Source: Escherichia phage UP19. Taken from it: 64,000 nucleotides of DNA. The stretch lies in the sequence record OX638288, one strand, 5' to 3'. The notes below the pieces were generated by a model, which was given only the letters and a program-made list of their open reading frames with translations, searched no databases and was not told the origin of the DNA. A program made the translations under genes and the position numbers. This document shows, piece after piece, positions 39,509 to 44,244 of the stretch. Every line of letters starts with the position of its first letter. Position 1 is the stretch's first letter.

Positions 39509-40009
39509 ATGAAAAAGTTAATTATCGCAATGAGTATGCTCCTATCAGGTTGCGCAGTCCAATACGGTGATGCAGTTTCTGCTGATGAAGTTGGTAAAGC
39601 TCGTATCGCAGCTGAACAGAAACAATTCGACGGCGAAATGAAATTCCGTGCCGGTTCTGGACTTGTGTACACCCGAGCTAATAATCAATGTGGTAATAAC
39701 TGTGCAAAATATGCTCAAGGGGAAATCGAATTCCAACGTGAACAAGAGTCTAAGCGTGAAGCGGTACTAGCCAAACACCAGGCAGAAATGAAGCGCCAAG
39801 ATGATTTGTACAAAAAGCAGAAACTGTATGCCATGTGTGTAAACCATATCAATCTACAGATTTCTGTCCACGAGGCTCGTTATTACGAAATGCTCGAAAC
39901 CGAGAGCTTCGATAAGGCTCGTGATTATAAGAAACAAATCAACAAGCTTAAGACCAAAGTGCCTGCTGCAGTAGAACAGTGCATGGAATACGGTAAAGAT
40001 AAGATTTAA
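39509..40009 (+). CDS. lipoprotein (166 aa)
   Basis: signal peptide with lipobox LSGC; charged coiled-coil-like C-terminal half. Confidence 0.6.
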   Translation: MKKLIIAMSMLLSGCAVQYGDAVSADEVGKARIAAEQKQFDGEMKFRAGSGLVYTRANNQCGNNCAKYAQGEIEFQREQESKREAVLAKHQAEMKRQDDLYKKQKLYAMCVNHINLQISVHEARYYEMLETESFDKARDYKKQINKLKTKVPAAVEQCMEYGKDKI

Positions 40010-40069
40010 GCAATAGAAATTTATTAAAAATAGTGTATAATGTACCTACATTCACTTGAGGAACAGATA

Positions 40070-41743
40070 ATGAAAAAGGTTGTTATTTTAGGCGCAGGTC
40101 TTGGCTCACGGTTGTATCCAATTACTAACGAAATCCCAAAGGTATTGGTTAACTACAAACAACATACGGTATTAAAACATTTGTATGATTTGTATAGTAA
40201 CCAATCAGATGAAATTATTCTGGTTATTCACAGCAAATTTAACGACCTCGTTAAAGGCTATATTAAATCCATTAACATGATTACTGGTGATAAGCCTAAA
40301 TTCACTATTCGTAACGTTGATGTTGCTAATGGTTCAGCTCATGCTATCGATTGCATTGCCGAAGATATCATTGGCCATAATGTCCTGTTTAACTGGTGTG
40401 ACATCATTCCTATCGGTCATAAAGTTGAATGGGGTAACGACTATTGTTATACCTATGGAACTGACTGTCGCTTTACATTTGAAGAACCGTACTTACGTGA
40501 AATTGGTACCGGTGGCGGTGTAGTTGGTTTGTATCAGGTAGCCAATTGGACAGGTTTCGACCGTTCTAATTATGGCGAAGACCTTGCTGATAACCTGGAT
40601 TCAATGGTCTATTTGACTGAACGTAAACTGGATTTTGTAGTTGATGTCGGTGACAAATTGAAACTTGCCAAGGCCCATGAAGATTCTGAAATTAACCGTG
40701 AATTTAATAAATTAGAGTTCACCGAGAATCTGGCTATTAAAGTACCAACTAACGAATTAGGTAAAGAAATTCAATCTAAAGAAATCAATTGGTATAATTC
40801 TATTGATTCTGAATTCGTTCCTAGCATTGTAGACTTTTCTCCAGGCGAATTCATTAAAATGGAACGTATCTTTGGTCGTACCATGGCAGATGCCTACCGG
40901 TTTATGTCCAAAGAAACTAAAGTCCTCATGGTTTATAAGGTCATTAGTGCATTACGTTCATTCGGTGGAACTATCGATAATCCGTCCGATGAGCAATGGT
41001 ATTCCGATGTTAAGAAAGAAGTGTTGGACAAGGTCCTTATTCGTAATGCTTCTATTGCCGGATTGATTGAAGGCTTTGCTCCACAGGGCATTACCCATGT
41101 TAACGATTTCAAAGTAGGCGACCCCGAAAAACTTCTCCGCCATGCACTAGAAATTCTGTCTGAACATAAAGAACCGTACCAACTTATTCATGGCGACCCG
41201 CACTACAGTAATATTATGCTGTCGGACGAAGGTGATATTAAAATCATCGACCCACGTGGTTATTTCGGTAATAGTTCTAAAGGCCCTGCGATTTATGATG
41301 AAGCTAAGGTGCTTTATTCTATCGATGGCTATGACAAATTTAACTCAGACCCTCTATGGGGTGGATTAACTCGTAACGGAACTCGTGTATTCGTTGATAT
41401 CGAAAAGGTTATGCCTTTAGACGATATTCCTATGTGCACATTTAAGCACAAGCTCTGGATTGCTGTTATTTGGATGGCGCTGGCAGGTTACTTTAAGAAT
41501 AACCCTCTGAAAGCTCTGGGTGCTTATTATAACGGTTTGTATCAACTGAGTGTGCTGCTGAAGCGGCATCCTCGTAAGCGTAAGCTTATTACTGGTGAAT
41601 TTGTCGATGAAGTTCGTGACCCTATCACGGCTCAAATTATTACTCGTTGTCCTGATAAGTGGGTTTTGCTTGACCAGGAAACTGGTGTAAAATATAAACC
41701 TACAGGTTCTACTGAGCTCCACAAACAATGGAAGAAAATTTAA
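40070..41743 (+). CDS. bifunctional nucleotidyltransferase/kinase-like protein (557 aa)
   Basis: ORF track 40040..41743 trimmed; N-terminal ILGAGLGSRLYPITNEIPKVLV; C-terminal HGDPHYSNIM and IIDPRG. Confidence 0.75.
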   Translation: MKKVVILGAGLGSRLYPITNEIPKVLVNYKQHTVLKHLYDLYSNQSDEIILVIHSKFNDLVKGYIKSINMITGDKPKFTIRNVDVANGSAHAIDCIAEDIIGHNVLFNWCDIIPIGHKVEWGNDYCYTYGTDCRFTFEEPYLREIGTGGGVVGLYQVANWTGFDRSNYGEDLADNLDSMVYLTERKLDFVVDVGDKLKLAKAHEDSEINREFNKLEFTENLAIKVPTNELGKEIQSKEINWYNSIDSEFVPSIVDFSPGEFIKMERIFGRTMADAYRFMSKETKVLMVYKVISALRSFGGTIDNPSDEQWYSDVKKEVLDKVLIRNASIAGLIEGFAPQGITHVNDFKVGDPEKLLRHALEILSEHKEPYQLIHGDPHYSNIMLSDEGDIKIIDPRGYFGNSSKGPAIYDEAKVLYSIDGYDKFNSDPLWGGLTRNGTRVFVDIEKVMPLDDIPMCTFKHKLWIAVIWMALAGYFKNNPLKALGAYYNGLYQLSVLLKRHPRKRKLITGEFVDEVRDPITAQIITRCPDKWVLLDQETGVKYKPTGSTELHKQWKKI

Positions 41744-42126
41744 TGTCGCATCGAGTAGAAAATAAGCCACATTTATGTTTTGATATCGATAACACAATCA
41801 CGATTTGGAACCATGACCGTGATTATGAGAACTTTAAACCGGACACCGAAATGGTGTCCATGATTAATAAGCTTTATGATGAAGGGTACGAGATTACATT
41901 ATTCACTGCCCGTGGCATGACTTCATGTGGCCCAGGTCGAATCTTGGTTGAAGTAGTTCCTGCATTGGTTAAGAACCTTGAAAAGATTGGATTGAAATAT
42001 CATAATCTGCTTACGCATAAGCCGAGTTATACTTTTATCATCGATGACCGAGCAATCCGTCCTGACCACTTTAAAGAAATGGTTCGTGAAGGAACTCTTG
42101 ATAGTTATAAGGCCTATCATCCATGA
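41743..42126 (+). CDS. HAD-superfamily phosphatase-like protein (127 aa)
   Basis: ORF track 41728..42126 trimmed to TAATG-overlap ATG; HAD motif I FDIDNTIT. Confidence 0.65.
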   Translation: MSHRVENKPHLCFDIDNTITIWNHDRDYENFKPDTEMVSMINKLYDEGYEITLFTARGMTSCGPGRILVEVVPALVKNLEKIGLKYHNLLTHKPSYTFIIDDRAIRPDHFKEMVREGTLDSYKAYHP

Positions 42127-42659
42127 ATCCAAAAATCATTGTTATAGACGGCCCGGATAATTCCGGGAAGTCCACTTTAATTAAAAATCTGTTATCCAAT
42201 AAGAAATACCGCCTTATTGATTTTCCTAAAAAGATTAATGGCAAGTGTATTTCATTAGGAACTGATAACGATAAGGCTTTAGTTGAAACTCTGTATAAGT
42301 TTTTAGACCCTAATTTCGTTTATATCCTTGACCGTGGTTATCCAAGTAATATTGTTTACTCAGGATTCCTTCGTGGTGAAATGGACCCTTATGTAGAACT
42401 GGAAGATTGGAAAGGGTTTAAATCCGAATTTAACGTTATCGAGGTTATTTTAACTCGCAATCCATTAGACGAAGACTTCGAAGACGACCTTATTAAATTA
42501 ACCAAAGATGAGTTCAACCTAACTATCCGGCAATACGAAACATGTTTTGAAAACGTGTTTAAAATCTTAAATCATGACGGCCATAATAATTTGCTTAATG
42601 TTGATATGGTAGAATTAAAACGTCTGAACGAATATATTGAAAATAAGGTGAATAAATGA
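42123..42659 (+). CDS. P-loop (d)NMP-kinase-like protein (178 aa)
   Basis: Walker A IVIDGPDNSGKST resembles thymidylate/deoxynucleotide kinase family. Confidence 0.65.
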   Translation: MNPKIIVIDGPDNSGKSTLIKNLLSNKKYRLIDFPKKINGKCISLGTDNDKALVETLYKFLDPNFVYILDRGYPSNIVYSGFLRGEMDPYVELEDWKGFKSEFNVIEVILTRNPLDEDFEDDLIKLTKDEFNLTIRQYETCFENVFKILNHDGHNNLLNVDMVELKRLNEYIENKVNK

Positions 42660-43354
42660 AACACATTACCGCTGTTAGTTTTGAAAATGCATTTAAACAA
42701 ATGAACGAAGAAATCCTGGAAGCTCCACAGTTTGCAGTTGATTCTCGTATCGGACGTTGTTATGAAATTGGTTCTGCTTCGGTAGAAGTACTGGATGCAA
42801 GCACCTATAAATTCACCGACCCACGTATCAATCGTATTAGTTATGAATATGCCGAATCCTTTTGGAAATTTATGATTTCTGGTGGTACTGACGCTGCCGA
42901 AGCATTTAAGGAATACCCTAATGTTGCTAAGTTCATTGATAAGCCGAAAAGTGATGTATTGCCTGCAAACTTCAACACTTTCTATGGACCTCGAATTGTG
43001 GCCCAACTCCCAGCCCTACTTAAAGAGCTTAAAGAAAAGGCTAACTCGCGAAGAGTTGTGTTCCAGATTCTCCAAGAACAAGACCAAGCCCTCCTTGATT
43101 CTGACGAATCCTTAGAATATCCTTGCACCGATTCGGTAACGTATTATATTCGTGACGGACGTTTGTATGCACACACCCATATGCGTTCACAAAACTGCGC
43201 CGTTGTTATGCAGCTGGATTTCTATCTGCAGGGTAAACTGATGGCATTTATTGCTGAACAGTGTGGTGTCGGTTTAGGTACATATTCCCACACCATGGTA
43301 AGTGCACACGTGTTTGAACGTGATTTTGACTACGTCCGAGGTTTCCTGAAATGA
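42656..43354 (+). CDS. 42: thymidylate-synthase-fold pyrimidine hydroxymethylase (gene 42 position), divergent from T4 gp42 (232 aa)
   Basis: NSRRVVFQI, EYPCTDSVTYYIRDGRLYAHTHMRSQNCA and SAHVFERDF align with T4 gp42 motifs as recalled. Confidence 0.7.
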   Translation: MKHITAVSFENAFKQMNEEILEAPQFAVDSRIGRCYEIGSASVEVLDASTYKFTDPRINRISYEYAESFWKFMISGGTDAAEAFKEYPNVAKFIDKPKSDVLPANFNTFYGPRIVAQLPALLKELKEKANSRRVVFQILQEQDQALLDSDESLEYPCTDSVTYYIRDGRLYAHTHMRSQNCAVVMQLDFYLQGKLMAFIAEQCGVGLGTYSHTMVSAHVFERDFDYVRGFLK

Positions 43355-44244
43355 GTTTGTTTATCGTTCCTATTTTCAGTATGCGTAGTTACGAAACAGG
43401 TGAATATGCCGTCCTTAAGGACGGCAATTTTCAACTCCATTTAAATCGTGCTCGTCCAGGTGATTATCTGGCTTATCCTAGAAATTCGAGCGATATCAAA
43501 GAATGCATTGAATTATTCCCAGAACTGAATTTCGTACCACTTTGGTATAAAGAAAATGCTTATGAAACCCGTAAACATTTCTGGTCTGAAAATGAGTTTG
43601 TAGTCGATTCACTAATCGAATACTATGATTGCTCAGGACTGGTGACCGATATCACCGGTTATGATGGTGCTCATACTGTACAATTCAACTTTAATATCAC
43701 AATGGACCCTGAAGTTCCTCGTTATTATATCGACGAGTTCATTGATATTGATGTGGCTTCAGTTGAACGTTCACTTTATACTACAGTCTTGAATCAATGC
43801 CAGAAAGACGTCCTGGTGTCACGAGGTGCATCCTCTGATAAGATTTTTGTAGACCAAAAGGTAATTAATCCTGCAGTAATTGAGCGTTACTCTGAAGGTC
43901 TAGCGCCTATTAAAATTGATGGTATTTTCCATCCATTCCGTATTTCGGATAAGTGTTATCAATTCGAAAGAGTTGTAGACCAAGCTGCCGCTGAAGGTGC
44001 TCGTCTTTATATCACCGACCCTAATGATTCATTTAAGCGCGAAGACTATCGTCCTGATGTAGAGATTATTAAATTCAAACCGAGTAAGGTTGAATATTAT
44101 CAAATTCTGAAATCAAGACCACATATCATTTATCATGAGAACCCAGGTTTAGTATTCCATCCTGGTCTGGCTGAATTCATTTATTTTGGTGCCAATATTC
44201 ATTCTGAATACGAAATGCCACGTTATGAGGACGTAGTATGCTAG
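43351..44244 (+). CDS. hypothetical protein in beta-glucosyltransferase position; candidate DNA-modifying transferase (297 aa)
   Basis: ORF track; positional replacement of T4 beta-gt between 42 and uvsX; no recognisable similarity to T4 beta-gt as recalled. Confidence 0.6.
   Translation: MSLFIVPIFSMRSYETGEYAVLKDGNFQLHLNRARPGDYLAYPRNSSDIKECIELFPELNFVPLWYKENAYETRKHFWSENEFVVDSLIEYYDCSGLVTDITGYDGAHTVQFNFNITMDPEVPRYYIDEFIDIDVASVERSLYTTVLNQCQKDVLVSRGASSDKIFVDQKVINPAVIERYSEGLAPIKIDGIFHPFRISDKCYQFERVVDQAAAEGARLYITDPNDSFKREDYRPDVEIIKFKPSKVEYYQILKSRPHIIYHENPGLVFHPGLAEFIYFGANIHSEYEMPRYEDVVC

Follow-up and report, generated by a model that had tools for sequence, protein, structure and literature searches.

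An AfhE-like nucleotidyltransferase-kinase fusion in a Dhakavirus genome, a probable supplier of activated arabinose for DNA hypermodification

The DNA of phages RB69 and DLP3 bears arabinofuranosyl groups directly on 5-hydroxycytosine, a base that is made by a thymidylate-synthase homologue (Lee et al. 2026, PMC13326640). According to the summary of He et al. 2026 given in PMC13326640, AfhE of phage HY126 is bifunctional, serving as a kinase for D-arabinose-5-phosphate and as a uridine diphosphate (UDP)-D-arabinose pyrophosphorylase, and AfhF, a HAD phosphatase that depends on Mg, turns arabinose-1,5-bisphosphate into arabinose-1-phosphate. The same article proposes an analogous role for the fusion proteins gp52:53 of RB69 (ORF53_52c) and gp82 of Acinetobacter phage DLP3, reports Foldseek matches of the RB69 and DLP3 homologues of the HAD phosphatase to GmhB, and includes Dhakaviruses, Marfaviruses and Bragaviruses in its synteny figure. 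Thomas et al. 2018 had recognized RB69 ORF053c and ORF052c as one gene with RmlA-like and kinase-like halves, had proposed a role in UDP-arabinose synthesis, and counted gp43 of IME08, a Dhakavirus, among the full-length homologues (PMC6024577; see also PMC8056088). The enzyme family is therefore already known, having been predicted in 2018 and characterized in 2025-2026, and its pathway, its distribution and its presence in Dhakaviruses are published. Here, we describe the family member encoded at 40070..41743 (+) of a 64,000-nucleotide stretch from Escherichia phage UP19 (sequence record OX638288), the whole of which we call the window. With a probability of roughly 0.8, we take this gene to be the Dhakavirus orthologue of AfhE, whose product would supply activated arabinose for hypermodification of the phage DNA.

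As judged from its sequence, the window comes from a Dhakavirus (Straboviridae, Tevenvirinae); the 5.5 kb around the gene shares 99.6% identity with Enterobacteria phage vB_EcoM_IME281 and 97.7-98.4% with the Dhakavirus members JS98, JS10, dhaeg and dhabil. The gene encodes 557 amino acids followed by a TAA stop, and its product shows 100% identity to those of JS98 and IME281. It aligns with a 562-residue protein of HY126 at 43% identity (E = 1e-143), collinear over 557/562 residues, with the same order of domains. We take this HY126 protein to be AfhE for its architecture and because it is nearly identical to RB69 gp52:53; the GenBank record of HY126 names it hypothetical and carries no AfhE label. 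HY126 rather than RB69 was used for comparison because the RB69 GenBank sequence carries a known frameshift. In the RB69 reference NC_004928 (L002 8095-9781) this single-base error persists, splitting the fusion into ORF053c and ORF052c, with stop codons after about residue 220, in agreement with Thomas et al. 2018.

The resemblance to HY126 extends to the genes around the fusion. In the window, RB69 and HY126 alike, gp43 and uvsX flank the cluster. Its order in HY126 (PP658200) is gp43, isomerase, a small open reading frame (ORF), the 562-residue fusion, a 128-residue HAD protein, a U32-like protein, a second small ORF, the synthase homologue, a 299-residue transferase, a thymidylate-kinase-like kinase and uvsX. 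As in HY126, the fusion gene of the window stands after gp43, directly before the HAD phosphatase gene, and in a cluster with a 5-hydroxy-deoxycytidine monophosphate (5-hydroxy-dCMP) synthase, a glycosyltransferase and a thymidylate-kinase-like kinase; over their full lengths these neighbors are 62% (HAD), 80% (synthase), 67% (transferase) and 38% (kinase) identical to their HY126 counterparts. Unlike that of HY126, the window cluster has neither a phage isomerase nor a U32-peptidase-like gene, and its thymidylate-kinase-like gene follows the HAD gene rather than standing at the cluster end.

The two-domain architecture is well defined. Pfam NTP_transferase matches the N-terminus (33.8 bits versus a curated cut-off of 21.2), Pfam APH matches the region around the Brenner motif (25.6 bits versus 23.2), and PHROG 4098 matches the full length of the protein (E = 4e-268). 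The sugar-1-phosphate nucleotidyltransferase domain spans approximately residues 1-205 (40070..40684) and contains GAGLGSRL at residues 8-15, PK at residues 23-24, WCD111 and D192-x-G-D195-x-x-K198. The APH/choline-kinase-like kinase domain, at approximately residues 206-498 (40685..41563), contains K224, E238, the Brenner motif H374-G-D376-x4-N381, and the Mg-binding D394 within IIDPRG. It is followed by a beta-rich tail of 59 residues (499-557; 41564..41740), which the alignment of homologues shows to be conserved only in Straboviridae-type proteins and missing from jumbo-phage-type ones. Across 49 homologues with identities down to 31%, G10, R14, P23, K24, D111, D192, G194, D195 and K198 of the transferase and K224, E238, H374, G375, D376, N381 and D394 of the kinase are invariant. 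An AlphaFold model built from an alignment without the HY126 sequence (predicted local distance difference test, pLDDT, 93.5, and 84-93 in the tail; predicted template-modeling score, pTM, 0.90) shows two domains resembling different structures, the N-terminal one RmlA, LicC and MurU and the C-terminal one choline, glucosamine and aminoglycoside kinases; no solved structure matching both domains at once was found, either by sequence or as a full-length fold match. A first-pass annotation, made from the letters of the window, had proposed this fusion, and the Pfam scores, the model and the invariant catalytic residues bear it out. The motif strings it quoted are exact translations, ILGAGLGSRLYPITNEIPKVLV of 40085-40150 and HGDPHYSNIM...IIDPRG of 41189-41260. 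It correctly placed a nucleotidyltransferase at the N-terminus, although at about 205 residues the domain is shorter than the roughly 230 proposed, and the 59-residue tail is to be added at the other end.

The fold matches raise the question of whether the protein belongs with bacterial salvage enzymes that have similar folds. MurU is among the top structural matches of the N-terminal domain and NCBIfam MurU models give sub-threshold matches, as might be expected of an AmgK/MurU-like salvage of host cell-wall amino sugars (N-acetylmuramic acid, MurNAc, or N-acetylglucosamine, GlcNAc) with no role in DNA modification. This is very improbable, as the NCBIfam scores lie far under the equivalog cut-offs (NF045697, 23.6 bits versus 370; NF045761, 20.1 bits versus 250), the genomic context consists of nucleotide and DNA-modification genes, and our searches found the family only on contigs that come from phages or resemble them. 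We give scarcely any weight to a LicCA-like activity, in which a choline or small-alcohol kinase and a cytidylyltransferase would together produce a CDP-choline-like donor for a surface polymer or for DNA. The matches that would favor it are at the fold level only (11-20% identity), with 13% identity to LicC and 11% to LicA, a LicC match that spans 51 residues around the P-loop in a phmmer search of the PDB (E = 0.0011), and no choline-kinase model among the Pfam matches of the fusion protein. Against it, the cluster holds a sugar-phosphate-type HAD phosphatase, a glycosyltransferase and a 5-hydroxy-dCMP synthase, homologues of the fusion are fused to or adjoin SIS sugar-phosphate isomerases, and the orthologue acts on arabinose-5-phosphate, as summarized in PMC13326640. 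LicC/LicA (a LicCA fusion in some bacteria) and MurU/AmgK, which are 11-16% identical to the phage fusion, differ from it also in their substrates, choline or MurNAc, and in passing the kinase product straight to the transferase, with no bisphosphate and no phosphatase step. The first-pass annotation had invoked LicA/LicC, AmgK/MurU and Fkp as models for a kinase followed by a transferase. Its expectation of a bifunctional enzyme making a nucleoside diphosphate-linked donor is supported, but the two activities would not be consecutive, given the HAD phosphatase step that PMC13326640 in its summary places between them. Aminoglycoside resistance was considered as a function and dismissed, with fold-level similarity alone in its favor and the genomic context against it.

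The assignment to AfhE suggests how the window cluster may work. Our own observations are that the protein has two domains whose catalytic residues are intact, that it is orthologous to and syntenic with members of a characterized cluster, and that elsewhere it co-occurs with, or is fused to, HAD and SIS domains. For the substrate, the order in which the steps occur and UDP as the carrier, we rely on the literature on the orthologues. We infer that the Dhakavirus enzyme performs the same chemistry as AfhE and that its arabinose-5-phosphate comes from the host. D-Arabinose-5-phosphate would be drawn from the host pathway to 3-deoxy-D-manno-octulosonic acid (Kdo) through KdsD/GutQ, a host source being proposed because the phage has no isomerase of its own. 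Using ATP, the C-terminal APH-like kinase would phosphorylate the anomeric C1 hydroxyl to form arabinofuranose-1,5-bisphosphate, the HAD phosphatase encoded by the next, coupled gene (41743-42126) would strip the 5-phosphate, and the N-terminal nucleotidyltransferase would combine arabinofuranose-1-phosphate with uridine triphosphate (UTP) to yield UDP-arabinofuranose and pyrophosphate. The glycosyltransferase at 43351-44244 would then move arabinose onto 5-hydroxycytosine in the phage DNA, a base that the thymidylate-synthase homologue at 42656-43354 would provide for incorporation in the form of 5-hydroxy-dCMP. The fusion enzyme would take the committed step in supplying the sugar donor, and the first-pass suggestion of donor synthesis for a DNA base modification is supported by the orthology to AfhE, the full-length collinearity with the HY126 protein and the shared gene cluster. 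Arabinosylated 5-hydroxycytosine shields the DNA of T4-like phages from restriction enzymes and shapes which defense systems a phage escapes or triggers.

The logic of this pathway resembles, step by step, that of ADP-heptose synthesis in Gram-negative bacteria, in which the SIS isomerase GmhA is followed by an anomeric kinase that forms a bisphosphate, the HAD-IIIA phosphatase GmhB, and formation of the nucleotide sugar by the second domain of the bifunctional enzyme HldE. The phage phosphatase gives sub-threshold matches to HAD-IIIA, the subfamily of GmhB. The domains of the fusion, however, are not homologous to those of HldE, which has an N-terminal PfkB/ribokinase-type kinase and a C-terminal cytidylyltransferase-type domain, whereas the phage protein has an APH/choline-kinase-type kinase at its C-terminus, an RmlA/MurU-type transferase at its N-terminus, and, as we understand it, a pentofuranose substrate and a UDP carrier. 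Fkp of Bacteroides and the arabinokinase/pyrophosphorylase of Leishmania, which activates D-arabinose, are bifunctional salvage enzymes that likewise pair a sugar 1-kinase with a nucleotide-sugar pyrophosphorylase. Unlike the phage fusion, they use a GHMP-type kinase, act on the free sugar, make a GDP-pyranose and serve glycoconjugates rather than DNA.

Other homologues offer independent "Rosetta stone" support for the pathway logic. Metagenomic homologues of 922-946 residues (P0067, P0081 and P0097) combine HAD, SIS, nucleotidyltransferase and kinase domains in a single chain, and in a 340-kb jumbo-phage-like contig (L005 7334-9644) a SIS gene lies directly upstream of the fusion homologue. 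Such fusion or adjacency of the four activities is what the published pathway of isomerase, 1-kinase, 5-phosphatase and nucleotidyltransferase predicts. The context in the 340-kb contig suggests that sugar-based DNA modification may also occur outside Straboviridae. Near the fusion homologue in that contig are a formamidopyrimidine (Fapy)-DNA-glycosylase-like gene and genes for topoisomerase II subunits. The contig that carries the P0067 gene (L004 8001-10775) next to an ORF for a 1164-residue multi-glycosyltransferase has a GC content of about 26% and looks like that of a giant virus or a very AT-rich organism.

The first-pass annotation had called the fusion unusual in a phage, which does not hold, as 341 phage records at E <= 1e-100, and 368 at E <= 1e-3, contain a full-length homologue, and these proteins make up PHROG 4098. 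The phages that carry it infect Escherichia, Shigella, Klebsiella, Acinetobacter, Serratia, Proteus, Yersinia, Vibrio and other hosts. Several observations weigh against assigning the window protein to AfhE. The Dhakavirus/Marfavirus/Bragavirus branch, 72-81% identical internally, is only 44-50% identical to all other Straboviridae homologues and is the most diverged, whereas the remaining homologues are 50-72% identical to one another even across phages of Shewanella, Acinetobacter and E. coli. Both domains share evenly in the divergence of the branch. Relative to HY126, the fusion (43%) is also far more diverged than the neighboring HAD, synthase and transferase proteins (62-80%). With the RB69 protein as query, tblastn found no phage arabinose-5-phosphate isomerase (SIS domain) in the 64-kb window (best E = 8.2). 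The isomerase is present in 276 phage records, with Dhakavirus in 0/60 evenly sampled rows. Across Escherichia, Enterobacteria, Shigella and other names, its count falls short by the number of Dhakavirus-type records, 51, and by this count it is absent from all of them. It is also missing from the clusters of Klebsiella phage Marfa (L008) and Proteus phage SJ_PmiM (L009). Its presence describes the usual setting of the fusion gene rather than the enzyme itself. Finally, specificity for UTP is not readable from the sequence, and no chemical analysis of Dhakavirus or JS98 DNA by LC-MS was found in the literature searched.

These observations would fit a diverged, isomerase-less subfamily of Dhakaviruses, Marfaviruses and Bragaviruses with the same architecture that acts on another host sugar (or free arabinose) or uses another nucleoside triphosphate, in which case the glycosyl group on Dhakavirus DNA, or else the donor, would be a different one. 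The outlier position of the branch, the disparity in identity between the fusion and the adjoining genes, the loss of the isomerase across the window, the 51 records and the Marfa and SJ_PmiM clusters, and the lack of chemical data on Dhakavirus DNA in the literature search all speak for such altered specificity. Nevertheless, we consider it unlikely. All family-invariant residues are kept, including many charged residues of the kinase domain such as K321, R325, R396, K413 and K481. Both the phosphatase partner (62%) and the transferase (67%) remain close to the HY126 arabinose enzymes. In addition, E. coli itself produces arabinose-5-phosphate for Kdo synthesis, so that loss of the phage isomerase needs no new substrate. 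A broader proposal, that the branch, having lost the phage isomerase and in Dhakavirus also the U32-like gene and the second transferase, is a functionally distinct subfamily defined by another host metabolite, another nucleotide carrier or a strict dependence on arabinose-5-phosphate of the host Kdo pathway, also seems improbable to us, although it would point to a DNA modification or a host dependence of Dhakaviruses not yet described.

If the window protein is AfhE, the gene content of the cluster also bears on the extent of the modification. Neither the RB69 U32-like gene nor the second arabinosyltransferase RB69p003 had a tblastn match in the window below E = 1. In the phage collection, RB69p003 is limited to Mosigvirus and Acinetobacter phages, with no Dhakavirus record. 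Because Dhakaviruses have a single transferase and no second arabinosyltransferase, their DNA probably carries mono-arabinosyl-5-hydroxycytosine, not the di- or tri-arabinosyl forms. The U32-peptidase-like gene is present in the Mosigvirus, Marfa and SJ_PmiM clusters and absent from Dhakavirus, with Marfa and SJ_PmiM combining the Dhakavirus gene order (fusion, HAD, thymidylate-kinase-like) with a retained U32-like gene. Dhakaviruses such as JS98, JS10, IME08 and similar phages are used in phage-therapy work, and both the probable mono-arabinosyl base and the probable dependence on host arabinose-5-phosphate are relevant to their host range and engineering.

The fusion gene is the first of a five-gene block between DNA polymerase/imm and uvsX, and its neighbors are replication genes of the T4 type, namely regA, gene 43 (for DNA polymerase), imm, uvsX, gene 40 and gene 41. 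The gene ends overlap, at TAATG (41741-41745) and at ATGA (42123, 42656 and 43351), and on this basis the block is read as translationally coupled. The second gene (41743..42126, +; L001 5745-6128), whose start overlaps the stop codon of the fusion, encodes a 127-residue HAD-superfamily phosphatase orthologous to HY126 AfhF and RB69 gp51. All four HAD motifs (DIDNT, TAR, K and IIDD) are seen in its sequence, and its sub-threshold NCBIfam matches include TIGR01689 in addition to HAD-IIIA. The third (42123..42659, +) encodes a P-loop thymidylate-kinase-like nucleotide kinase of 178 residues, homologous to RB69 gp45 and assigned to PHROG 761, with weak Pfam and NCBIfam P-loop matches only. A thymidylate-kinase-like gene is found in every arabinosylation cluster examined, and its position varies, lying after the HAD gene in Dhakavirus and at the cluster end in Mosigvirus. 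The fourth (42656..43354, +) encodes the thymidylate-synthase homologue, which in alignment with E. coli ThyA retains C146 and has L143E, D169N and N177D. Together these substitutions form the signature published for flavin-dependent 5-hydroxy-dCMP synthases, which Lee et al. recognize by D169N (PMC13326640). Because of these substitutions, the modified base of the phage is expected to be 5-hydroxycytosine, not hydroxymethylcytosine. The fifth (43351..44244, +) encodes a putative DNA arabinosyltransferase of 297 residues, orthologous to RB69 gp46:47, "arabinosyltransferase 1". It belongs to PHROG 3891 and has no match in Pfam or NCBIfam, the function being assigned from Table 1 of PMC13326640.

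For the window itself, the value of these assignments lies in annotation. The fusion is now called "hypothetical protein", "GlmU" or "capsule biosynthesis protein" in public records, and the synthase homologue is named dCMP hydroxymethylase or thymidylate synthase depending on the record. RefSeq and PHROG 1238 label the HAD-fold AfhF orthologue "phosphoheptose isomerase", and elsewhere it is entered as "capsule biosynthesis protein"; both names look wrong for a protein of this fold.

The ORF containing the fusion gene spans 40040-41743 (+) in the program listing and offers two start codons. The ATG at 40070 is the better start because a GAGGA Shine-Dalgarno sequence (40058..40062, +) lies 7 nt before it, the ATG at 40040 falls within a -10-like hexamer, and the RefSeq record of IME281 gives an identical 557-residue product starting at 40070. 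The first-pass coordinates of 40070-41743 are therefore exact. The longer ORF from ATG 40040 was rejected; it has no Shine-Dalgarno sequence, its start lies within the TATAAT hexamer, and it is not conserved in homologues. That hexamer belongs to a promoter-like site directly upstream of the fusion gene (TAGAAA, a 16-nt spacer and TATAAT; 40014..40041, +; 10/12 consensus matches). The number of sites in the consensus scan was not above that in shuffled sequence, making this site weak evidence for a promoter, and its chief value is as an argument against the upstream ATG. Between imm and the fusion gene, where Mosigviruses have the arabinose-5-phosphate isomerase, lies a 166-residue ORF (39509-40009, +) whose match is to PHROG 1754 (unknown function), with nothing meaningful in Pfam. 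Its N-terminus, MKKLIIAMSMLLSGC, resembles a lipoprotein signal peptide with a lipobox, and we would guess that its product is a superinfection-exclusion lipoprotein adjoining imm.

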